Assembly: GCF_038025025.1 (NCBI RefSeq)
Contig: NW_027117348.1
Span: forward strand, 1,178,001 to 1,242,000
DNA: 64,000 bases
Direction: 5' to 3'
Source: Phyllosticta citribraziliensis
Lineage: Eukaryota
Shown piece after piece: positions 7,842-49,101 of this stretch. Both the position numbers and the translations under genes were made by a program. Under the pieces are notes generated by a model. It did no database searches. It was given only the letters and a program-made list of their open reading frames with translations, and was not told where the DNA came from. The stretch's first letter is position 1; every line of letters starts with the position of its first letter.

Positions 7842-9744
7842 ATGACCCTGACCATGACCCATCCTGGCGCCCCAGAGAGTGCGTTATGTTATGCTGCTCT
7901 ACCACGCCTGCATCCGCCAGCTGACCGCTTTGCAGAGTTCAGTCATGGCTCTCCACCGTCGCCCGCCGTCGAGTACGACGAGGACCTCCGAGTCTGCTGT
8001 CCGCCGCACACCACCGAGCGCAAGCTCGTCGCCCGCATAGACCTGCGCGTCATTCCCTTGCTGTGTCTCATGTACCTGTTGGCCTTTTTGGACCGGTGCG
8101 CCTCTTGTCCTCCTCCTTCCGCCCCCGCTAAGCCCTGCCAGCGTCAACATTGCCAATGCCAACAGCTTCGGCCTTTCCGAGGAGCTTGGCCTCGCCAGCA
8201 AGAACAGCATCAAGTACAACACTGCGCTCGTCATCTTCTTCGTCCCCTACATTCTCTTTGAGATTCCCAGCAACATCTTGATGAAGAAGCTCAAGCCCAA
8301 CGTCTGGCGTACGTACCGTCTATTTTTTGATATTTTGCCCGCCAAACACGCCCTCTAGGCGCGGGTCCACCACGGTACACTAGCCGTCCAGACGCGATCC
8401 TCTTGGAAGCTCGAGCTCCACCCACTAATTCGCACGCAGTCTCTGGCTGCATGTTCCTCTTTGGCCTAGTCACCGTCTGCCAAGGTTTGGTCCAAAACTA
8501 TGCCGGTCTGCTCGCTACTCGTGAGATGTCCACCACATGGCTTTTGGTCGATATTAACTTTGCGCAGGCTTCTTCCTCGGCTTATGCGAGACGGGCATGT
8601 TTCCTGGGTGCTTCTACCTCATAGGAATGTGGTACCGCCGCCACGAAGCCCAGCGCCGCTACAGCTTCTTCTTTAGCAGCACCACCCTGGCCGGAGCGTT
8701 CGGTGGCTTGCTCGCCTCGGCAATTGGCAAGATGGACGGCATGCGAGGCTATCGCGGTTGGCGGTGGTATGTTTGCCCTCTCTCCACCAAGCGTCTGCTC
8801 ACACTGCTCAGGATATTCATCCTCGAAGGAACACTGACCTGCGTCATCTCCCTATTTCTCTTCATGCTGCCGAATTTCCCAGAAGAGGCCAAGTGGCTCG
8901 GCGACGACGAGAGGGAGTACGTCAAGGCGCGCCTAGAAGTGGACCAGGGCCGCTCCGCCGTTGAGCGCCGCATCACGCTGCGCGACGTTGGCAACGTCTT
9001 CAAAGACCCCAAAGTGCTTGTCGGGGGTTTCATGTATTTTGGCCTCATTGTTCCTGCGTACGGGTACGTAACGAATACGAATGGTCCAGACGCGCCACCG
9101 GCTGCTGACCACGAGGCTAACACGGACGCGCCGCGTGCAGATATGCCTACTTTTCGCCGGCCATCCTCAAGACGTACGGCTACTCACCCATCCAGACGCA
9201 GCTACACTCGGTGCCGCCGTGGGCCGCCGCTTTTGTCTTTGCCATGCTCGTCGCGTGGTGCTCGGACAAGCTCAGACATCGCTTTGCCTTTGCCGTCTTG
9301 CCCATCTTGGTCGCCATTGCCGGCTTTGCCATGCTGCTCTCGGAGCCTCCTAGCGCGACGAACAACAAGACGCAGTACGCGGCGCTCTTCCTGGTCGCCA
9401 TGGGCTGCTACTCGGCCATGCCCATCATCGTCTGCTGGTTCGTCATGAACCTCGGCGGCCACCACCGGCGTGCCGTCGGCAGCGCGTGGCAGGTCGGCTT
9501 TGGCAATACCGGCGGCATCATCGCCGTGTTTTCGTTTCTGACCAAGGACGCCCCGCGCTACGTCCCCGGTTACAGCATATGCATCGCCTTTTGCTGTCTC
9601 AGCTTGCTGAGCATTGCCGTCTACGGCGCCATGGTTGCCCTGGAGAATCGCAGGAGAGAAAAGGCGACGCCGGATCTGGGGCTCACGGAGCACGAGAAGA
9701 CGGAGCTGGGAGACTTGTCTCCGGATTACCGCTACCTCATCTAA
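7842..9744 (+). CDS. MFS transporter, allantoate/nicotinate permease (ACS) type; exons 7842-8095, 8142-8308, 8440-8520, 8568-8766, 8812-9063, 9141-9744
   Basis: Motifs RKLVARIDLRVIPLL...LAFLDR-VNIANA, FEIPSN, RFFLGLCETGMFPG, GWRWIFILEG and VGFGN. Five canonical GT-AG introns keep the frame. Start codon uncertain. Confidence 0.9.
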
Positions 9745-9844
9745 CCAAAAGCACGTCAGAGCGTTTTCCTGACAGACCAATTTGTATACTGTTTAAGTAT
9801 GTATATTCACACAGTATCTGGTTGTGAACCATGCCTGCTATCCT

Positions 9845-10611
9845 TTAACTGACAATGTCCCGCCACCCCTCGCCCTCCTTCTCCTGAATCACCCCCTCCG
9901 CCACCATCTTCCTGATGCTCTCGATGCTCTTCTCCACCGCCATCTTGGCCATGGCGTCGTGCTTGGCCTGCAGCTTTGCTATCTCGTCGCTTGCGTCGGC
10001 CGACAGCTCGGGGTGCCGCCATTCGAAGATGTAGGTGAGGTACCTGTGTGGTGCGTTAGTTGGGATGGCGATGGAAAGAGAGTGTTGGGAGGACGGGAGG
10101 GAGACGTACAAATCATCCTGCCCTCCGGCGCCGGTGCTGATCAGATTCGTAATCGTGCTGCCGTCGGGCTGCTGGAAGTCGACCTGCGCGCGCGCGTCAG
10201 TCACGGCCTCATCGTCTCATCATCATCACCCCTCCTCTCCTCCTCCCTCTCCCCACCAACCTCTCCAACCCACCCAAAGAGAAAGAAACTAACCTTCCAC
10301 CCCCCCACCGCGACGCACCTCTCCCGCACCTCCCTGCCCTCTTTAAATCTAACCCACCTCTCCACCACCCTACCCCCCTGCTCTTCTCTCTCCACCTCGC
10401 ACGCGACGATCGCCGGCACGAAGTCCTGCGCCCGCCGCACCTTGCGCTGCAGCCCGGCCCACAGGTGCGCGTGGCTGAGGCGCGGGAAGGATGGCGAGGG
10501 CGGCGAGGAGGACATCGGGGTGCCGTTGCTGGAGGGCGTGGAGGAGGGGTTGTTGTTGTTGGTGGAGGCGTTGACGGGCGCCGTGTACGCTGTGTGGATT
10601 GTGATGGCCAT
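9845..10611 (-). CDS. DUF1857 / AtaL-like (SRPBCC-fold) protein; exons 10611-10294, 10183-10110, 10043-9845
   Basis: Family-typical LWAGLQRKVRRAQDFVPAIVACEV, N-terminal AYTAPVN and C-terminal LYLTYIFEW. Two GT-AG introns with branch sites. Confidence 0.8.
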
Positions 10612-12228
10612 GGTGGTGGTGTGGTGCGTTTGTTGGTTGAGTTGCGCGGTGCGGTAGACGAAGCGTTGATTGATCAATCCGAAGAAACGGTGGCAGGGCG
10701 GTTTATGGCGTCGTTGCTGTCGTCGTTGTCGTCTCAGCTCAATTCAGAGGGTCTGTCTGTCTGTCTGTCTGTCTGTCAAGCAAGGCACCGGCGCGAAATC
10801 TGGAAGCAAGGGGCGCAAGTACGGTAAAGCAGTCGACGCAGGCAGTGCAGGACCTCGCCCGTATTTGTAGACAGACATGGCTGGCTGGCTGGCCCCCAAG
10901 CCGATATATGTGGGGAAGCCCTATGTCGCGCTGACCCGATACACCATCATAGGCGGGAACAATCGTCGCCGTCGCCGGGAACTGCCCGCTACCCGCCTAG
11001 ACGATGGTGTGGAGCTGGGGGTTGGCTTGGGTGTGTTTGGATGGGGCTGCCTGACGCCGCAACGCAAGCCACACGGTGGCGGTGGTGCCTGAGCTGATTC
11101 GGGCGAAAGAAGACAATGGAAAAGAGAGAAGAGCGCGATGACGATGCTGGGAGCATGCGCGCGTGGTGGTGGGGCACCGACGCAACCAACGGCCGTGGCG
11201 GTCAATTGATTGATTGATTGGGCGCAAGCAAGCAAGCAAGTCGGCAGCCAGCCAGGTCGGGCGTCAAGGACCACCTCGATACATGTATGTACCTTCAGCC
11301 AGTCTCATTCGCTTTCCAGCCGAAGACCGAATCCGAGATGTGAGGCCTGGGTGGCGCGCAGTGCGGTGCGATTCAGCAGGTTGTAGGCCACAAGGTGACG
11401 AGGGAAACGGACAGTGACTTGCGTCATGGTGTTTTGGCCCTTTCCTGTGTGACCAGGGCTGCCGATTGCTTGTACTTTTGCGCCTGTCGTGCCTCCGTCG
11501 TGCGGTGCTGTCAACCACCATCCATGCCAGCCGCGCCGGGCGGGGCTGACATCCATGCGTGGGCAAGGAACCAGGGCGGACGCGCCCGCCGCGGACCTGT
11601 GTCCGATTTGCGTTGGGCCGGAGCGCTGCTAGGATGCTGGGTGGTTTGCTGGCTCTTGACGTGGAAAGGCTGTGAGAAGTGTATCGAGGAGGACTTGGTG
11701 AGTGAGCTGTGAGCGGCATCAACTCTTGATTCCTGATGCCTGAGACAAGACATTGCCATCTGCAGCTCATCAGTCTACTCCAAAAGACACCCAACCCAAA
11801 CCATCATCAGAACATTAAATCCGTCTTGGTATCAAATTCTAAGCAAATCTTGGTCTTTTGCGACCCAACAGATACATTATCATTCATAACCATTTACGCC
11901 TGGGCGGCCAGCCATCCGTAGATTCGACCATTCATTCATCCGCGCCCGAGAGCCCAATCCAAACCATCAAGCAAGCAAGCAAGCAAGCAAGCAAAGAGAG
12001 AGTTTGAACGCCGCCCTAGTGCCAGGGAGAATGCAAAGCAAAGGAGAGGAGAATGTGTGCAGAGCCATGCAAAAGAGACGCCGTCGTGGACCGTTGGCCT
12101 TGTATGAACGCTAGTGTACTTGATTCGAAGCCGTGCTGGCTGGTATCTCGCTCGAGTGTCGGAGAGCCTGACGAACCAGGACGGCCAAGTGGAAAAGTCG
12201 ACTGTGGTTGACCAGAAACGGTCCCGGC

Positions 12229-26400: not shown

Positions 26401-28303
26401 GTATTCGGCTATCTTGTCTCCATTTTTCCATTTCAAAGCCGCCTTTTGGCGCCAAATCCGCATGCGCGGCTGACCGAGATTCCGCATCAGCAAGACGAAT
26501 TTTGCTGCCGTCCGCGGCCTGTCCAGCGTTCTGCACGGCCACCCGGTCTTCACCACGCGCCGCGCGCACGGCATGCCCGTCGTCAGGCACTTGGACCACA
26601 CCACCCCAGGCCACTCGACCAGCAAAGGGGCATTCAAACTGCGAGTCCTTGCTGCCCGGCGAATAAGGCTCCACTTCACGCAGATGGACCCACTTGCCCA
26701 CCCGCTCCGCATCGTCGGTGACGCAATCGCGGACCCTCGATTCCACTCCCATACATCATCGCCCAGCCCACGCTCGCACGCACCGCTCCTCCGCGCCCAG
26801 TCGTCCACGACTTTGGAGACAGCGCTGTCGTGTATCCGTCCGGTCCGCTCTCCGCGTCCGCGCGGGCGTGTGAGATGAGAGATGGCGGCTCCGAGGAAGC
26901 CCCGGCGCTGGCCGACGGACGGACGTAAGGGAGGGAGCCAGGACGGAGACGCCCACTGCGAACGTGCTTACGGACAGATTGACGTCTGCCAATGCTGGAG
27001 CGCCTCAAGCGTGCTTAGCAACGGACGCAAAGGAGAGCAGGAGACGGAGAGAAACCTGCTGTCCATGTGGCTGGCTGGCTGGCTGAACATCAGTCGACGT
27101 GACGTGCGTCCTCGCCCACCTCCTCTGTCGTTCGCACCACACCACTCCACTCCATCACCACATTGCCTGCCCCACACAGCAATCAATCCAACAACCGCGG
27201 TGGAGGCACCCGTCCCGCCGTTCGTCGACCGTCTTTACCCACTAATTAATCCATCCGTCATCCCCCAATCTTCCGTGGGGAGATCGCCGTGGTGCTTGCT
27301 TGCTTGCTCACAGTCCAGTGTCCACCGTCTCAGATGCAAACAAGTGGAGACCGGGAAAAAACAGACTGACCCGCCCGCCGGCTGCCCGTCGTCGACCCAC
27401 TGGCAAAGTGGGGCTACCCACTGCTCCACGCGCTGATGCAGCCAATTGGGACCTGTTGGTGCGGTCCCTGATCGGCGGGCCTGCCTGTCTGTCTGCGTCT
27501 GTCTTGTTGCTTGCTGCTGTTGGGGAAGCTGACGCTGTTGAGCTTCTCGGGGCTCTGAACTCTGAACTCCACTCGCTTGCTCGCCTGCCTGCGTGTCTGT
27601 CTGGAATGGAGCTGGTTCTGTGCGGCGGCTGCGCCGACAATCGTTACGACTGGCTGGCTGGCTGCGCTGCGCTGCTAAACGGGTTTCTAACCGTCCGTTG
27701 TCGACCACGCGCCCGCGGTCGTTGGTGGAGTGAGTGACATGCGAGCGAGCTCGTGCCTGCTTTCTTTCCTCAGCCGAAGTCAGACAGCGACAAGTTTCGT
27801 CAAGAAACAAACGCCCTCACGCAACGTCCCTTCAACTTGTTCTCCACAACCGGTCTATCTGTCGTCAGCCTGGCATCGCGTGAGCGCAGCGCAGCTAGGG
27901 CAGAGCACCGGTGGGGTAAGAACTGGAGAAAGCGTGTGGGGCTCCACACCAACTGCATGTGCCCCGCCAGAGGTGGCCCGGTGGCGAGTTTCATGCCGAC
28001 GCCTACGCCAACTAACCACCCAGCCGCGACAGTGATGTGCGTGTGAGAGTGCACGAGTATGCTGGCGCTTGCAAAGAGAAGGTAGACGAGGAGAAGGATG
28101 TGCAATGGTAAGTTCAATTGATTACACTTCTACCAGTACAGAATTCCGTGTCCTGTATACTCCTGTTCCAATCTCATTTCCCACCCGTGATTCCCCTTTT
28201 CCTGAACCACTGACACCTGTCCAACCGGACAACAACAACGAAATCAAAAATCAAAACAGGTACATGTATGTATGCCAATGGCGAACGACCACTGGAATCT
28301 AGC

Positions 28304-31300
28304 TCAAGCGTGGGCAGCAGGAGTAGTCGACGCGTCGGGGGTGGAAGACGGCGCAGCGACAGGAACCTTATGAATCTACGCCAGCAGTCAGCAACACGGC
28401 GCTTCAGTCAAGTAAAAAGGAAAGGAGACAAAACGTACCGTCGGCCGCTCAACATTGCTCCACGTGAGGGAGTGGCGCACCCAGCGCTTCAGCAACTGGG
28501 CGGGGCCCATCTCCTCAACCTCTGCCTGCTTGCGCATGAAGGGATTGCGGTGGGCTGCCCAGTGACTCTCCGTGCTTTCCTGGGACGGCGAGTGGTCCGA
28601 GTGGTTGTCGTTGGTCAGGCGGTGCTCGACGTCCGGGCGATGGCCCGCGTGGTTGTTGAGCCGCGCGATGGTGTCGCGCTCGCGCTGCTCTTGGGCTTCG
28701 TGCAGCCGATCGTGTTCGCGCATCCAGTCCAAAAACACCTGCAACTTCGGCTTCTTTTTCGCCTTTTTCAACGAGTACTCGAGAAACCATACCTCTGGTT
28801 CGGTGTAGGTGTGGTTGTGGGGTGGAGCCTCCAGGTTCCGCTTCGACAGCTCGATGAACTTGTCCTCGTGCTGGGCCTTGTGGTTGTTGAGCTGCGCCGT
28901 CGCGTTAAACTCGCGCTGCTCTTGGGCTTTGTGCTTGCGACCGTGTTCGCGCAACCAGTCCATAAACACCTGCCACTTCGACTTCTTTGTCGCCTTTTTC
29001 AACGCGTCGTCGAGCTCCTTTAGCTCTTGTTCGGTGAAGTTGAAGGGTCGAGGCTCCAGTTTCCGCCTCTTCGACAGCTTGTTGAACTTGTCCTCGTGCT
29101 GGACCTTGTGGTTGAGGCGGTTGAAGCCGGATGTATAGTTGAATATGGAGGGGTTCCTAAGAAGGGAGTGCGAGCCGGAAGTGTGGTTGAAATGGAAGAG
29201 GTTCCCAAGTACGTGCGAGCCAAGGTGCGGGCCAGGCCCAAGCTGACGCCGCTCGTGGGCAGCAGCCGTCGTCTTGCCCTCGTTCTCGTTCTCATCCTTT
29301 TCGTAATGGAACCTGCGGGCTGCCTTGTCGTTCGGGTGCGCCTTTCGGTACTTTTCCAGCTCCACCTTCATGTCCTTGTCCTTCCCCGACTCCTTGATCG
29401 ACTTGACGATGTTCTCGACCTCCTCTTTGGTGTAGTCGGGAAACCACAGCCTCTTCGACAGCTTGTTCTCCCTCGAGTCCTTCATCAAATCTTTCTTGGA
29501 CACGGTGAGCATCATCTCGGGCGGGCCGATGTGTACGCCATCCTTGCCCTCGCCACGCCGCTCTTGGATCTCCATTGCACCGGTATGTTTCGAGTGCTCC
29601 CCGGACCCACCGACAACTTCTTCATCATCATATATCAAGCCGCACCACCGGCCGAAGGGGCCACAGTCTTTGTTGTCCCGGGTAATCTGCCTCTTCGACA
29701 GCTTGTCCTTCTCCTTGACGTCCCTGAAAAGGATCTTCCCAAAGTCACGAAGCCCGGGCGGGCCGATCCGCCGGTCATTCTTCTTGCCCTCGCGACGCCG
29801 CTCTTGGATCTCCATTGCACCGGTATGTTCCGAGTGCTCCCCAGAACCACCGACAACTTCAACTTCTTTATCATACTGGAGACGCCGCTCTTCGATCTCT
29901 GTTGCACCGGTATGATTCCAGTGCACCCCGAGACCACCGACAATAGCCTCAGGCTCACGCCGCTCTTGGATCTCCATTGCACCAACATGTTCCGAGTGCT
30001 CCCCGGAACCACCGACGACTTCTTCTTTATCATCCTTGAGACGCCGCTCTTGGATCTCCAAATCAGTAGGAGGTTTTAAGTGCTCCCTGGAACCACCGAC
30101 AGTATCATTGAGCCGACGCCGCTCTTCAACCTCAGTTACACCGGTATGATTCGAGTGCGCCCCGGAGCCACCCACAATATTATCGAGCTGACGCCGCTCT
30201 TCGACCTCAGTTGCACCGGTATGATTCGAGTGCGCCCCGGAGCCACCGACAAGATCATTGAGCTGACGCCGCTCTTCGACCTCCGTTGCACCGTTGTGAT
30301 TCGAGTGCGCCCCGGAGCCACCGACAACAACATCTTTGGGGCGACACCACGGTCGAATCCATCTGATGCGACAGACGCGTTGTATTCCCGGAAGACTTCT
30401 TTTGACAGCAAACCCCCGGTGGAGTATGTTGTCGGGGGCGTTTTCACGGAGCTTGCGCTTGCGCTCATGCTCCTGCCTCTGCTGCTCTGCCTCCTGCTTC
30501 TGCTGCTCTGCCTCCTGCTTCTGCTGCTCTGCCTTTTCCTGCGCAGCATTATGCTCGCCGTGCTCACGGAGGAATTCGCTGCATCCCGCTGGCGGAGCCC
30601 GGGAAACGGGCACGACATTCGTACCTAAACATTTTGCCAGTGTCAGCTTGGGCATGTCTTCTCTCTTGCGCAGCTTGGGCAAGATGAGGGGAATCTTGTC
30701 CGCGGCCTGAGTTCCTGACGGCTTCTGCTCGGCGTTGGAGGGGTAGTGGTTGTCGGGGTCGTGTGTGGCGTGGAGCTTCTTGTTGCGCTGAGGCTTCCCC
30801 TTCTCTTGCTGCTCCTGGAGCTTGCGAATCATCTCCTTGCATTCCGGTGATGTGGCACGCGGGTGGTCCAGGCCATCGTTGGGCGCAAGACATTCTTCCA
30901 GCGTCAACTCAGGCATGACTTCTCTTGTCCGCAGCTTGGGCAAGACGAGGGTCTTGTCCGGGGTCTGGGTCTTCGCGGGCTTGTTTTGCTCGAGCTGCTG
31001 CTGCTGCTCCGCCTTCTCCTTCGCCGCATCATGCCCCATGTGCTCGCGAATGAGCTCAGCGCATCCCGCGGGCGGATTATGGCCAGGATGCGGGCCGTCC
31101 CACGGCGCAAGACAAGCCTCGGGTATCAGTCCGCGCTTGCGCAAGCCGTGCTGGTTCACCTCGACCTTAGTACTCGGCCGCTCGCCCGGAGCACCCACAT
31201 GCACGATGGTCCCGTCCCCATGGCCGACTTTCTGACATATGGTTGGTTGGTCCTTCTGCAGGTGGTGGGTGCGCCAGTTGTCGTCGTGGCAGAGATTCCA

Positions 31301-33736
31301 TACTCGCTCCGCTGCCTCGTCTTGGTCTCGCTTCCGCAACAGGGCCTCTTCCGTTCGGCCGACGTCGGAGCTGTCGTTGACGTCGATGGTCTTGGTCGGG
31401 GAGTCCTTTTGCTGCCGCTCCCCAATCTCCTGCATGACGGTGTGGTTGAGGTGGGGGCCGGCTTTCGTGGGTGAGTACTGGAGGTTTGTGCCGGCGGTGG
31501 TGCTGTTGTGCGAAGCTAATTCCGAGCCGCCGTGCCTGATCTTGTGCATCTTCTCCGCCTCCAGGTTCTCCTCTTCGAGATTCTCCTGGCTCTCCTTTTC
31601 GCGGCTGTGGGCTTCGTGGCGGGTTTTCTCCCGCTTCTCCATGAAGTGCTGCTTGTGCTTCTCCGCCACCTCCAGCTTGGCAGTGTGGTTCTTGTGCGGG
31701 CAGTCGATGATCGACGTGTGGTTATTTACGGCACCGGGATGGGGAGTGACGGGGACAGGGGCGGGAGCATCTCTCTTCGGCAGCTTGGGCAAGATGGGGC
31801 CTTTTTCTCCAATCTCGGGTTGAATGGGGGGTTTTTTGTCAGTGTCCTTGCTGCCAAAGGAGTGCTTGCACATCGGTGCAATACTCATGTGGGGCCAACT
31901 ATGATGATGACAGGGTAGCTGCATCCTCCAATCTTGCGCATCTCCTCTCTTCCGCGGCTTGGGCAAGATGACGCCATCGATCTCCATCTTCGGGGGGGCT
32001 TTGTGGTCAGGGTCGGGGTCGTCGCCGGCATGGTACCTCATATTGTGCCTCAGCCGCTCAAGCCTCTCGGTTTCCCGCTCATTCTGCTCTTCCTTCTTCT
32101 TCTTGCATTCCGGTGACAAAACATGCCCGTGCATAGGGCCTCCTCCTCCGCCATTAAGATGGCAGGGTTCTTCTCTCTTTGGCAGCCTGGGCAAGGTGGG
32201 TCTTTCGTCTTCGACCTCACCGTCTCTCTTCTGCAATCCGGGCTCCGACTTGATGGCATTCCCCGTCGTAGTCTCCAGCACGGTGTCGTTCGGCTTGTGG
32301 GGGCTGTCGTACGCGCTTGGGGGGAGCTTGCCCTTGGGCGTGTAAACTTCGTGCCCCGGATCACTCTCCCACGGCTGCGGGTGCGGGTGGAGCTTGTCCT
32401 CGAGCTTGCCATGGCCAACTTCGGGCGCGGAGTCGTCCTCGAGCATCTTATCACTCTCCAACGCCCGCGGCAGCAGCACCGGTGTCTCGGAAACAGCCGT
32501 CAAGAGCGGCGTCGACGACGCACGCGGGTCGTTCCAAGTCGACGACGGGTCCTTCGCGTCGAGCGGCGCATTCGTCTGATTGAGCACCTCGTGGTGGTTG
32601 GTGCGGAGCTCACGGAGAGACACGACCACATCCTCCCACAGCCTTTTGCCCTTGACGTGGTCGGCCTTGGAGCCGTCCTTGCTCTGAAGCTTTATCGACT
32701 TTCTCCTCACGGCCTCGGCTGCCTTCACCTGGTCCTGCGACAGGTGCCCGGCGCCGTTGGTGGCGGGATTTTCGCCCCAGTGGTGCGTGTACCACTGCTC
32801 TTTGGCGTAGGCTTCTGGGTTGGGTGGGGGGTGGTTCTTGGCCGGCGGGCCGTTCGTGTTTTCCTTTTGCTCGGCCGTCATGTCGTCTTTGCCGGGGCCG
32901 TGGTTTTTCCACATCTCCGTAAAGTACTTTTCAGGGTCCGTCAGCTCGTTTTGCTTCACTTCCTCGGCTTTATGGTCGCCGGGCCCCTGCAGTGCTCGAG
33001 CAACTTTGTTGAAGATGCCGAAATGCTTATGTTGCAGGAGTTTGTCATCGTCCGCGGACTGCACTGCCTGTTCCGAGCTCTCATGCTTGTGCATGTTTTC
33101 GGCCAGCTTGTTTGACATGACCTGCCTCTGCTCTTCCGTCAGGGGCGTTGGCTCTACAGGGACAGCCCTCTTCTTGAGGATTTCCAAGGCTGGCAGCATA
33201 TTCTCTTTGGCGAACACAGGGCTCTTGATGAATTTCTCCAGCCTGGGGTCGGGCTTTCCCTGTTTCTTGATCTTCTTCTGCTGAAGCTTGGTGGCAAAGT
33301 CGTACATGAACCTGGTCTGCATCGCCAGATTCTGGCCTCGCTCGCGACTTTCCTTGTCCCAGAACTTTTTCCACGCCACATCGCGCTCCTCCGGCGACAT
33401 CCTTCTCCAATTTTTTTCGTTGATTTCCTTGCGAAAAGCGCGCGCGCGATCTTTGGACTTGCTCTCGGAAGGGGCTTTGAAATTCTTCTCCTTCTCGTAT
33501 TGATCCAGGAAGAAGTGGAAGCCTTTCATGACGTCGATGACAGGGTCCTCCTGTTTTGGGCCCGTTGCCTGTCCATCTTTGCCAGGTGGGGTGGGCTGGG
33601 GGACGGGAGCCCCTTTGTTGGTGGGGGCTGGGGGGAGTGAGAGAGAGGATGGGAGGACGACGGCAGGGGCGGCGGAGACGCTGCCGAGAAGCAAAATGGT
33701 GAGGACGATGGTGAGAAACTGCATATTGAGATGCAT
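28304..33736 (-). CDS. Secreted ~1789-aa Kex2-processed repeat polyprotein (KEP-like); exons 33736-28439 and 28375-28304
   Basis: Signal peptide MQFLTIVLTILLLGSVSA. Many KR/RR sites (LKKR, LPKR, LRKR, LSKR, ERR) separate the modules. Terminal 63-nt GTACGT...GCTGAC...TAG intron. ATATAAA at 33834-33828. Confidence 0.85.
28650..29115 (-). repeat. Tandem duplication of a ~77-aa coding module
   Basis: HKxQHEDKFxxLSKR...LKKAxKKxKxQVFxDWxREHxRxHxAQEQRE...AxLNNH occurs twice. Confidence 0.9.
29555..30325 (-). repeat. Eight coding repeats, core 75 nt / 25 aa (VGGSGxHSxHTGAxExxERR)
   Basis: Units start at 30325, 30250, 30175 and 30100 (exact 75-nt period) and continue with longer spacers to ~29555. 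Confidence 0.95.
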
Positions 33737-35238
33737 CTTGATGGGTTAATGACTCATCAAGAACATGAGATGACGTGGAGTCAAAGTTGATGAAATGGAA
33801 AGGAATCAGAGGGAGGAGAGTTTCTTCTTTATATCCTTCGTGCGCAGAAATCAACCAGGAGACAACCATTGTTGAGCTGTTCCATAAAAGGTCGATGGGC
33901 ACGCGTACCACTGTCTAGGAGTACTCCGAAGACAATCTACCCCATGGGAGCAGAATCATATGTTTGGAACACAACTCGCCCTTGGGAGAGAAGGATTTGG
34001 TTCGCACATGTCAAATCAGAAGTAGACGCGGTCGCATGACTTTTGGACTTTGTGATTCGAGGGATGAAGAGAGTCGAAGATCCATCACTGCCCGTCTTGT
34101 CAGCGTGATTCAAGAAGGGCATATTGAAAGACAACCAAACCGCGAAGCATGGGTGAGGGAGCCGTGGAAGTGCCACGCAGGCTCTCCCAACCGTCCCCAC
34201 CACCGCATCTCAAGCACCTTCGCCATCCTTCCTCTGCGTCCAATCCAACGCTGCAGACACTCACACATGTCTGTCACAGAGCAAACACTGCGCCATGGTC
34301 ACGTTCCCATCTGGAACCAAGTCAACAATCACCAGCGTCTCCCCACAACTTGCCCCACAAAAAATTCTCATCGCTCGTACAAGAAACCCCCCGATGCGCC
34401 AAATCTCGTTTCACGACGCAGCTCAACCGCACGTTTCGACCAATGACGGCCGCAGATTGACTTGATGAATCAAGACCTTGCTCGTGAGTTGCTGGCACCA
34501 GCAGCATTTGGCACCTGCGCTGCGCTGTGCTGCGGCCTGACCCGATCCGCTCCCCACCCGAGCTTGTTTGGTGGAGCAGAGGGCAGGGACATCATCCAAG
34601 GTGATGCTTACCTCGCCATTCTTCGGTACTCGGGGAGCTGTGTTGGGTGGTAGAAGGCTCCCGCTCGCCAAAGGGGCGACAGTGCAAAACCTGTATTCTC
34701 AACCTGCTCGAAACGAACAACGTTTGGGAGCCACAGACAAGGACAGAAAAAGTGTGCCTTGATTGATTGATGATGCCGATAGTTGATGCAGTTATGCTGG
34801 TGCAGAGATGTTCTGCTACATGGGACGAGAGAAACGGTACGATGAGAACATGATTGGATTGCATGCAGATGCTGGAACAGACGACGCGTGGTTTTGCGGG
34901 AGACGTGCCTTGTTGGTGATGGACCTGTATCCCTTGACCTTGGCCTTTGATTTCGCACCTACCTTTGTGCGCTGCGCAAATTTGTCTCCGAACCGCCGTT
35001 TGGGTGCCTTGCTTGTTCCACGCATTGCACTTTCTGGGTCTCAAAAGACGGGCCTGACGTAATCAAGCGCCGGGTTTGCCTTATCGGCGAGTCCTGCCCG
35101 TGCTGCGGTACGGCGTCGCGGCTTGCGCGAAACGCGCTGTGGAATCTCCATCGACCTGCGTGGTCGGCGAAAATTGGTTGAGATGGATGTGAGCAAGAAC
35201 ATCAGGCAGGAAAGGACCGCACGCAGGCCAGCGGCCCA

Positions 35239-46897: not shown

Positions 46898-49101
46898 TTA
46901 CAACTCGCCCGCACCGCGCGCTCTGCGCCTCTCCGCCGCCGAAGCGGGAGGAGCGGGGACAAGTGATGGGCCTGGTTTAGAGACGGCGACTCTGGCGCCC
47001 ACACCCACACCAACACCCACATCCGCGCCGCCGTCTTGCTGCCGCCGCGGCGGCCCATGCCCCAGCATCTCGTGGAGCGGCTTGGGCGCAAAGGCGGTTT
47101 CGCTCTCGCTGTGGCTCTCAGGCATCTCGCGACCTTCCTCGCTTCCGCTGTCCTCGACCCAACTGCCATTAACAGCCAGCGCCTCTGATTCAAACAACGG
47201 CACGACCTCGCCGCCCGGCAGCAGCGCAGCGAAAGCGAGGTCCTGCTGCGTGTTGTCGGAGCGGCTCGACGCCGACGCGGGCAGCGCCGTGATGGTCAGA
47301 TCGCCGGTGGCGTTCTGGCGGGTGGACAGGCTCGCGCCGGCGGCATCGGCAGCGACGTCGAAGCCAGCGAGGCCGAGCGGAAAGGCAGACGACCCGGTGA
47401 CGGCGAGGGTTTTGGCGCGGTCGATGGAGCCGCCGAGGTACGTGAGGGCGGCGGTCGAGACGTAGTGGACAAACGTCGTCAGCGGGTAGGCGGCTTGGCG
47501 GGAAAAGGCGGAGACGCCATCTCTGCCCAGCGCGTCGTGAATCGACGTGTTTTGGATCGTCAGCTGGTCGGTGCCAGCCGCCGAGTAGTTGTTGTAGTTG
47601 GAAAAGTGCAGCTCCTGCGTCCAAGTGTGCGGCGCGCCGTTGATCGTGGCCGAGACGGACAGGCTGCGCGACACGTTGACGGCGAATTCGAGCGTGCTGT
47701 TTGTCCCATTGACCGACAGCCCGCCGTAGTCGTACCAGGTGCGGATGCTGGGCGAGGGCGCGGAAACGGTCGGTTGCGTGCCCGTCGTCGCGCCGCTCGA
47801 GTTGGAGTCCGAGTACCAGAGGAACAGCTTTCCCGTGACGACCCAGTTGCTGTTGACCGTCTCGGACAGAATGGCAGTGTTGGGGCCCGTTTCGTTGAGG
47901 CCCGCCACACGAATCTCAAACGTGTGCTCGGCGCCGTCGCTCAAGAGTCCCAACCACGGCGTGACGTCGATTTGGTCCTCTTTGAGATCAAAGGCATCGA
48001 TCCCGACGAGTGGGCGCCAGAAGCTGGCTACGACGCCTCCTGTAAAGACGATGGGAAAAGGCCACGCGACGCCGGCAAGGTTGCCATCGATCAAGAGCTG
48101 CAATTCACGAAAGGGCCAGAATCCATACAGTTCGGTGACGTCTCCAAAAGTGTCGACCAATGAGTTGGGCACGCTCGACATCCAGAATTCTTCCTCGGCC
48201 TGGCCACATGCGGCAATGGAAAAGATGGCGCGCTCGACATTTGCGGGGATGGTCAAAGCACTGGTGGCGACATCAGCCGGCAGAGCAAAGGCAGAGCCAG
48301 AATCAGACGACGACCCAGCAGCAGACACGGGCAGGATTGCGTCAGCAGGCTTGAAGGTCGCGTCGGCATCATTGTAGAACGAGGCAGTCAGAGTGGTGTT
48401 GAAGCTGCCCGTGTAGACGTCGCTCAGCAAGTTTCCGAGATCGAAGATGATTTTTTGCGGCTCTTTGAACAGGGATACGTAGGCCGACACGTCCTTGATG
48501 TAGGTACAGATGATCCCATCCGCAGTGGGCTCGGCCGTCGAGGTCCGGAATATTTCCGTATCATTAAAGTACATGATTGCCAACCGGTCGTACTGCCGTC
48601 CCCGCGACGTGACTGTCAGGTTGAAGACAACCCTGTTAAACTCACATGCCGGCGGAGCGTACTCGCCTGCAAAGCCGTTAGCGAATGGACGGGCACGGGC
48701 TAAACGAGCAGCTGCAGTATCAAACCATGTGGGATGCCACGCGTCGCGAGGTGTACGGCAGGGGGCATTGACTTACCAACATATGGCTTGCCGTAGCTTT
48801 GGCCGAATACATGGACCATGAGGGTGTCTTGGCAATCAGGTGCTTTTGGGGTGAGGACAGGTGGGTCGAGCTCCACGACATGCAATGGGGAGGTTGACGC
48901 ATTCTCCGCACGAATGGCCAACGCCTGCTGGTGCAAACGTCTGTTGGCAGCTGCAGCTGCAGCAGCGGCCGGGAGTGCAGAGAGCAAGGCTGCGAGCAGC
49001 AGCAGAAGCAGCAGATTGGACCGCGGGGCGGTTGCTGCGCGAATGGGCGGGGCGATCCGTGAGCCAACGGCGCCATGCATGATCGTGGAGCTGTACGCCA
49101 T
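46898..49101 (-). CDS. Secreted peptide-N4-(N-acetyl-beta-glucosaminyl)asparagine amidase A (PNGase A family); exons 49101-48777 and 48666-46898
   Basis: HVFGQSYGKPYVG-EYAPP, GRQYDRLA, FRTSTAEP, GQAEEEFW and PFPIVFTGGV...WRPLVGIDAFDL. Hydrophobic N-terminal signal/anchor. Start may be 49080. Confidence 0.9.

Follow-up and report, generated by a model that had tools for sequence, protein, structure and literature searches.

A spliced Phyllosticta gene encodes a secretory-type modular polyprotein with predicted Kex2 sites at its module boundaries

The window analysed here is a stretch of 64,000 nucleotides (nt) from Phyllosticta citribraziliensis (contig NW_027117348.1, positions 1,178,001 to 1,242,000; all coordinates below are those of the window), a fungus known, according to PMC9073689, as an endophyte of Citrus in Brazil. 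The gene in question occupies positions 28304 to 33736 on the minus strand, where an original prediction, made from the letters alone, had placed a giant secreted polyprotein cut by the Kex2 protease into a library of peptides. A single open frame runs from 33736 to 28388 and would encode 1782 amino acids (aa) before splicing, and removal of one short intron gives a two-exon gene with a product of 1789 aa; the coordinates first proposed were correct, their left bound of 28304 being exactly the end of exon 2. The features of the gene are given below, where KR and RR denote dibasic sites, identities are to P0002 (a P. citrichinensis homologue of 1496 aa), X1 and X2 are sequencing runs, P0010 is a public P. 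citribraziliensis protein model of 334 aa and A2 is an alignment of the modules.

33828..33833, minus strand: TATAAA box, 92-97 nt upstream of the ATG, read from the sequence and of putative function
28439..33736, minus strand: exon 1, 1766 codons with the ATG at 33736 (open frame with frame arithmetic and translation; 75% identity over 1368 aligned residues)
33671..33736, minus strand: signal-peptide-like N-terminus, residues 1-22, V-S-A then A-P
32642..33559, minus strand: conserved core, residues 60-365, repeat-free and Cys-free, with the L-x-K-R site ILKKR followed by AVPVEPTPLTEEQRQ (83% identity)
30398..32224, minus strand: Cys-pair module region, residues 505-1113, KR-bounded pieces of 17-157 aa with six Cys pairs and one single Cys
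31772..31945, minus strand: one complete KR-to-KR module (residues 598-655, one Cys pair) that P0002 lacks (gap in the pairwise alignment from one LPK..KR linker to the next)
30455..31132, minus strand: three tandem ~75-aa modules, residues 869-1094 (self-BLAST E 1e-11 to 3e-13; alignment A2)
29450..30397, minus strand: His/Gly repeat region, residues 1114-1429, two higher-order units
29066..29449, minus strand: LWFPDY...KAHP block, residues 1430-1557, ending KLSKR (68% identity)
28604..29065, minus strand: two 77-aa helix-prone modules, residues 1558-1711, split by ELSKR (self-BLAST E 3e-20 to 4e-20; rough Chou-Fasman)
28439..28495, minus strand: last L-x-K-R site QLLKR and the conserved tail W.R..L.WS.VERPT, which runs on into exon 2 (89% identity)
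28376..28438, minus strand: intron of 63 nt, GTACGT...CTGAC...TAG (sequence, X1 and X2 contigs, C-termini of P0002 and P0010)
28304..28375, minus strand: exon 2, 23 codons and TGA, the S/T/P/A-rich end of the conserved C-terminal tail

The three module classes that had been proposed (Cys-loop peptides, His/Gly repeats and helical modules) were recovered by self-comparison and Tandem Repeats Finder, with the ~75-aa Cys modules falling within residues 851-1085 and the 77-aa units within 1532-1711. They follow a long N-terminal part, residues 23-504, which is free of repeats and Cys and holds KR only at 189-190, 364-365 and 503-504. In the Cys-pair region (residues 505-1113), the pieces are joined by the linkers LPRLPKR, LPKPRKR, LPKLPKR, LLRKR, GLRKR, LPKLRTR and LPKLRKR, and most of them hold exactly one Cys pair with a loop of 13-18 residues. 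The ~75-aa modules each consist of a Cys loop of 15-16 residues, a charged (acidic) and helix-prone REH..H stretch and an LPKLR[KT]R linker. A 21-nt tandem repeat at 30470-30534 (3.1 copies, 97% match) encodes a QQKQEAE run in the third of them, and is shorter in P0002. Each higher-order unit of the His/Gly region starts with a short Cys loop (6 or 8 residues), followed by VGGSG.HS.H.G..E..ERR units (seven and one, respectively), an IGPP tail and KLSKR. Residues 1138-1400 hold the eight 25-aa His/Gly units, all of which end in ERR; the first three are 90% identical in DNA, and Tandem Repeats Finder reports a period of 75 nt (3.3 copies, 90% match) as well as a period of 159. Across the whole protein the Cys residues form eight pairs plus one single Cys, with no pair spanning a KR site, and the loop at residues 1122-1131 is Arg/Trp-rich, while the tail after QLLKR measures 38 aa. 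The Cys modules and the 77-aa modules are 16-21% identical in alignment A2, which is a suggestion of common origin; a profile comparison of A2 with P0003, a more distant relative introduced below, was not significant (E 0.16). "Helical" here refers to a rough Chou-Fasman propensity script, and "disordered", used below, to a charge-hydropathy script.

The module boundaries carry a motif that corresponds to the preference described for Kex2, namely an aliphatic residue such as Leu at P4, mostly Lys but more rarely Arg, Thr, Pro or others at P2, and Arg at P1 (PMC8528282). L-x-K-R occurs 12 times against a mean of 0.79 in shuffled sequences, where the maximum was 6 and none of 5000 shuffles reached 12, and a repeat of the test gave the same outcome (0/3000). 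The control motifs RK.L, L.RK, L.KK and L.RR were found 0, 1, 0 and 0 times, with ~0.6-1.1 expected for each. Since L-x-K-R lies far above the shuffles and the controls at or below chance, the dibasic pattern exceeds chance, and the enrichment is both direction- and residue-specific. All 12 L-x-K-R sites, together with one L-R-T-R in the additional linker LPKLRTR that fits the extended motif L-x-x-R, are located at module boundaries, and the L-x-K-R sites sit in Pro-rich, hydrophilic linkers. The lead-ins listed in the original prediction are all present (LPRLPKR, LPKPRKR, LPKLPKR, LPKLRKR, LLRKR, GLRKR, four LSKR and nine ERR). ERR itself is found nine times against 0.86 in shuffles, and eight of the nine end His/Gly units. 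Cutting in silico at KR yields 18 pieces of 17-236 aa, and cutting at both KR and RR yields 34. When predicted fungal substrates of Kex2 were tried in vitro, about two thirds of them were cut (PMC2515848).

Relatives of the protein were found within Phyllosticta and, by an exhaustive phmmer search of residues 1-1200 together with word-indexed searches, none outside the genus. The phmmer search, run against 1.84 billion representatives, returned two proteins at E <= 0.001, which are P0002 (E 0) and P0003 (E 3e-4), the latter heading a cluster of seven members from P. paracitricarpa, P. citricarpa and P. citriasiana. The word-indexed searches added only P0010, with matches in one of 5387 candidates of near length, two of 8000 longer proteins screened with a core profile and one of 6974 shorter ones, and every match is annotated as a "hypothetical" Phyllosticta protein. 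The family has in common a signal peptide, the core block and a C-terminal tail in which LLKR is followed by W.R..L.WS.VERPT. Public gene models represent it poorly: four of the seven members of the P0003 cluster, and five of the nine public models seen overall, are truncated at the N-terminus, and the length differences within the cluster are differences between gene models. P0010, the only public protein model that matches the gene in P. citribraziliensis, starts at the internal Met1456 (window 28304-29371), so that residues 1-1455 are missing from it, signal peptide included. A literature search found nothing that joins Phyllosticta with Kex2, and searches on the secretome and the repeat proteins of Phyllosticta brought up nothing about this gene.

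Conservation in P0002 was uneven along the protein, and the predicted cutting sites and Cys residues were among its most stable elements. Module order is unchanged, KR is kept at all ten alignable L-x-K-R sites (with Leu at nine of the ten), and the other alignable KR sites are kept in three of four cases, with one lost. No residue class is better conserved than Cys, with identity at all 12 alignable positions, and P0002 itself has 11 L-x-K-R against 0.81 in shuffles. Among the large parts, identity is highest in the C-terminal tail (89%) and in the N-terminal stretch of 343 residues (83%), and the least conserved segment is the first 77-aa unit (40%). The two proteins differ by whole modules, as seen in the alignment: eight His/Gly units here correspond to one in P0002 and two 77-aa units to one, while P0002 has a 71-aa duplication that is missing from the 1789-aa protein. 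In the more distant P0003, only the signal peptide, the core with a K-R before TPLT.EQRQ and the tail are recognisable. The core is 25-30% identical to that of P0003 from P. paracitricarpa, with the K-R invariant in a three-sequence alignment (A1), and 15 of 22 tail residues are identical, including LLKR, so that two KR sites are kept overall. P0003 carries different Cys-pair modules, which are likewise KR-bounded.

The composition and hydropathy of the protein are those of a secreted-type, very hydrophilic chain. The signal peptide, judged by hydropathy, by the V-S-A cleavage context and by conservation in relatives, bears out what had been proposed, within the limits of such a heuristic. The hydrophobic stretch covers residues 2-32, with a 19-residue Kyte-Doolittle mean of up to 2.42, and is the sole stretch above 1.6; the best window outside the N-terminus scores 0.76 and the whole chain averages -1.15. 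The signal-like N-terminus is kept in P0002 and in the distant P0003. Glu (10%), Lys (9%), Pro (8%), Arg (7%) and His (6%) are abundant among the 1789 residues, and there are only 17 Cys. By the charge-hydropathy plot, which is a rough measure, 17 of the 18 KR-bounded pieces fall on the disordered side. A Pfam scan of the whole protein found no family at E <= 1, a PDB sequence search found no match at E <= 1, and the ESM Atlas, queried with the core and with residues 1430-1766, returned no usable match. Two short motifs are over-represented. H-x-x-H occurs 18 times against 6.07 in shuffles (0/3000 reach 18), and N-glycosylation sequons number 17 against 7.4 (1/3000 reaches 17), among them NHT, which is found eight times for 0.23 expected and is spread across several module classes. 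In the His/Gly units the H-x-x-H and N-H-T motifs overlap (HSNHT).

The gene is transcribed and spliced, because one contig each of runs X1 (side 255) and X2 (side 29), which come from two studies, skips exactly 28376-28438, with CT..AC ends on the plus strand at the joint. A transcript, whose absence the original prediction had named as counting against it, is thus present as spliced copies in both runs. The splice is also supported by protein models, since the C-terminus of P0002 carries the exon-2 sequence and P0010 equals residues 1456-1789 of the spliced product; compared with the unspliced translation (P0001), P0010 shows 312 identities over 315 residues, and all three mismatches lie inside the intron read-through. 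Contig depth and contig ends are uninformative as to expression level and transcript boundaries. A second GT..AG joint, of 53 nt at 34088-34140 on the minus strand, appears in one X2 contig only, while the X1 contig reads through it. This joint is ~250 nt further upstream than the TATA box described above and could be part of a long 5' leader or of a separate minus-strand transcript. The plus strand holds several long antisense open reading frames (ORFs; up to 330 aa) at 28214-33115, which overlap the gene, have no matches, agree with a strongly purine-rich coding strand (AT skew -0.25 to -0.30) and look like by-products.

A third sequencing run, X3, covers the gene in a close relative (organism B) at ~93-94% DNA identity. 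Its indels in exon 1 are -3, +12, -3, -3 and a net 72 nt, the last being a repeat-copy difference that falls in the His/Gly region (29450..30397); exon 2 has three adjacent deletions totalling 6 nt, and the intron has +1 and +4. All the exon-1 indels are multiples of three, and the reading frame is kept. Of the 349 substitutions, 40 were listed, and the 30 of these in exon 1 (28572-29142, residues 1532-1722) split 10/10/10 by codon position and change the amino acid in 20 of 22 codons, in what is a small sample. One of the two silent changes is at the P4 Leu of ELSKR. This points to module sequences that are relaxed or diversifying, with the frame and at least one site preserved, although the sample is too small to prove positive selection.

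Taken together, the site statistics and their conservation bear out the earlier observation of a secreted-type modular precursor delimited by conserved Kex2-optimal sites, and we consider it probable (roughly 0.6) that this is a secretory modular polyprotein that works like the Kex2-processed repeat proteins (KEPs) of fungi, with most of its L-x-K-R sites cut in vivo. If so, the polyprotein would enter the endoplasmic reticulum, where N-glycosylation may take place at the over-represented N-H-T sequons and one disulfide may form per module. A late-Golgi kexin would then cut after each accessible L-x-K-R, and perhaps also after LRTR and the ERR of the His/Gly units, a Kex1-type carboxypeptidase would trim the basic ends, and from ~18 (KR only) to 34 (KR and RR) pieces would leave the cell. 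As a guess, the pieces are extracellular peptides at the fungus-plant or fungus-microbe interface, with a putative effector or antimicrobial role; similarly, the H-x-x-H-rich His/Gly and REH..H stretches could be guessed to bind metal, and the variable Cys loops, including the Arg/Trp-rich one, to act as antimicrobial or recognition loops.

A number of observations weigh against this reading. The cleavage is predicted from the sequence. The 12 L-x-K-R sites reduce to about seven independent site types once the repeat copies among them (the LPxLxKR linkers and the four LSKR) are grouped, and KR as such is only mildly raised (17 vs 11.3, with 240 of 5000 shuffles reaching 17). At the ERR sites P4 is Glu or Gln, which is non-aliphatic, and cutting there is therefore less certain. 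An X-Ala/X-Pro run of the Ste13 type follows KR at only one of the 17 sites. In the same study that reported cleavage in vitro, about one third of the predicted Kex2 substrates stayed uncut, and the accessibility of the site mattered (PMC2515848). The first ~480 aa resemble a conserved domain rather than peptide cargo, being recognisable even in the distant P0003, and the notion of a pure "peptide library" does not hold for this repeat-free, Cys-free part, with its three KR and 83% identity to P0002. With respect to the transcript, X1 and X2 were labelled RNA by guess, the splice joint being the sole basis of their transcript status; the sequencing-run search found no run containing the gene that is recorded as RNA, and the spliced X1 contig continues far past the gene and is uninformative on transcript ends or level. 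By two published KEP filters, the protein would not be counted among the KEPs. The first asks for one motif covering at least 15% of the length (PMC6339444), while the His/Gly units reach 8 x 25 = 200 of 1789 residues (11%), the Cys modules ~3 x 75 (13%) and the 77-aa modules 2 x 77 (9%); summed, the classes cover ~32%, and only this sum would pass. The second allows no KR-separated sequence above 100 aa (PMC7329392), and eight of the 18 KR-bounded pieces are longer (168, 175, 139, 101, 157, 236, 128 and 118 aa).

Falling outside both the 15% and the 100-aa filters, the protein would be dropped by both published KEP pipelines, so that it is KEP-like in its working but lies outside the published KEP definitions. 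Its likeness to KEPs as these are described (Le Marquer et al. 2019, PMC6339444; Umemura 2020, PMC7329392) lies in its having a signal peptide but no membrane segment, and repeated units set apart by KR or RR. By heuristic hydropathy a signal peptide is indeed present without a transmembrane segment, and where at least four KR/RR fragments are asked for, at least three of them similar, there are 18 or 34 fragments with eight His/Gly units and three Cys modules. It differs from them in its 1789 aa, its long conserved non-repeat N-terminal part and its conserved tail. Most KEP types are described as genus-specific, and of the 1193 surveyed 77 carry two motif types and two carry three; Phyllosticta is absent from the species table of that 2019 survey (PMC6339444). 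The label of an "unusually large, multi-class" KEP thus holds in that the protein is larger and more heterogeneous than Ece1 and Rep1 as described, and is weakened by the two filters; we do not claim it to be the largest.

Among individual systems, Candida albicans Ece1, the candidalysin precursor, is closest in logic, and Ustilago maydis Rep1 is closest as a repeat precursor; neither is related in sequence, and with regard to Ece1 the phmmer matches were all from Phyllosticta. Ece1 is likewise a secreted polyprotein of non-identical KR-ending peptides, processed by Kex2 and then Kex1, but has 271 aa, seven KR sites and eight peptides, and Cys-pair or His/Gly modules are not part of its description in PMC12153327. 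Rep1 yields 11 peptides (PMC3133707); it differs in having a single motif class, its peptides form amyloid-like fibrils on aerial hyphae, and homology to it was not found. The effectors with a Kex2-processed pro-domain (K2PP), such as SnTox3, share the L-x-K-R or L-x-x-R signal in a secreted protein of a plant-associated ascomycete (PMC8528282), but there one site removes one N-terminal pro-piece from one folded effector, whereas a dozen sites are spread over a modular chain here.

The strongest alternative is that the protein acts intact, as a disordered and repetitive secreted component of a hyphal or spore coat, an extracellular matrix or a shield, with few of its dibasic sites used, for example in removing an N-terminal pro-piece. 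The model for this is U. maydis Rsp3 (869 aa by truncation labels), which is described as a large, disordered secreted effector on the hyphal surface with a Cys region, a complex array of different repeats and length polymorphism (PMC5923269), and our protein is very hydrophilic and charged and has several repeat types whose copy number changes between species; its conserved N-terminal ~480 aa, too, have the look of a functional domain more than that of cargo. However, Rsp3 is described as not processed by Kex2 between its repeats, and Rsp3-type proteins are defined without Kex2 sites there (PMC5923269), whereas here the Kex2 optimum is 15-fold enriched at module boundaries and modules end in L-x-K-R or ERR. 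The hydropathy profile also shows no hydrophobic C-terminus of the glycosylphosphatidylinositol type, and Ser (5.1%) and Thr (4.8%) are too scarce for a mucin-like protein. The site enrichment argues against an intact protein, which we regard as unlikely while giving it more weight than any other alternative.

We consider it highly improbable that the gene encodes a ribosomal precursor for modified cyclic peptides of the ustiloxin or dikaritin type, precursors which it resembles in its signal peptide and KR-flanked repeated units (PMC7329392). The surveyed DUF3328 genes are on average 3.09 genes away from their precursor (PMC7329392), while in our 64-kb window none of 334 stop-to-stop ORFs of at least 80-90 aa matched DUF3328, although shorter exons could escape such a scan (124 ORFs of at least 80 aa at 20.3-43.1 kb, and 98 and 112 ORFs of at least 90 aa elsewhere in the window). 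The earlier statement that the window holds no DUF3328/UstYa gene was therefore upheld. No tyrosinase or methyltransferase match near the gene was found among the scanned ORFs either. Furthermore, the repeat units measure 25-77 aa, compared with ~8-14 aa in ustiloxin-type precursors, and Tyr makes up 1% of the residues (18/1789) with no recurring short Tyr-containing core. Finally, a non-functional product, be it a frame that is a by-product of repeat composition or a decaying gene, could be read into the 334-aa length of P0010 and the fast amino-acid change relative to organism B (20 of 22 changed codons non-synonymous in the sample), and is largely refuted by the open 5.3-kb frame, the 75% identical 1496-aa homologue with unchanged module order, the in-frame indels of organism B, the conserved Cys and KR sites and the spliced copies in two runs.

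The surroundings of the gene appear unrelated to it. The neighbours include NCBP3, a C2H2 factor, a coiled-coil/Zn-cluster-like gene, APH, PRELI, PNGase A and others, and tblastn with the 1789-aa protein and with P0003 found no second copy in the window. A PNGase A family gene (peptide N-glycanase type; PF12222, E 9e-125) is located at 46901-48772 on the minus strand, 13 kb from the sequon-rich polyprotein gene, and its proximity is probably a coincidence. At 8558-10743, a plus-strand gene for a major facilitator superfamily transporter, in two ORF pieces, adjoins a minus-strand two-piece gene of the AtaL family (PF08982, acetylaranotin-cluster protein L; E 3e-20 and 1e-15), and this pair may be the remnant or the edge of a secondary-metabolite cluster.

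If the predicted cutting is real, then a single transcript of a citrus-associated fungus would give rise to a dozen or more different peptides, and the species of the citrus black spot group that are related to it have versions of the precursor that are their own. Such a protein escapes the usual screens, because it falls outside both KEP filters, lies far above the size limits set for "small secreted" effectors and has several public models without a signal peptide; secretome, effector and KEP screens that are built on the truncated public models would thus miss the family. More tentatively, we propose a genus-restricted arrangement of chassis and cargo, in which the conserved N-terminal core and C-terminal tail would form a constant chassis around a fast-changing array of Kex2-excisable disulfide loops, N-glycosylated H-x-x-H His/Gly units and helical REH..H units. 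In this proposal, which goes further than the processing reading and which we hold to be possible rather than probable, the array would be rebuilt between sister species by whole-module gain, loss and tandem expansion at roughly neutral-to-positive rates, with the cutting sites and Cys fixed. Such a protein, if the proposal is true, would be a fungal counterpart of the multi-peptide prohormones or multi-toxin precursors of animals and, among precursors of the KEP type, would stand out by its size and heterogeneity. It would also be a source of disulfide-loop and His-rich peptides that are candidates for metal-binding, antimicrobial or plant-directed activity, and would offer a natural system in which to follow how a peptide repertoire evolves through the shuffling of modules around fixed protease sites.

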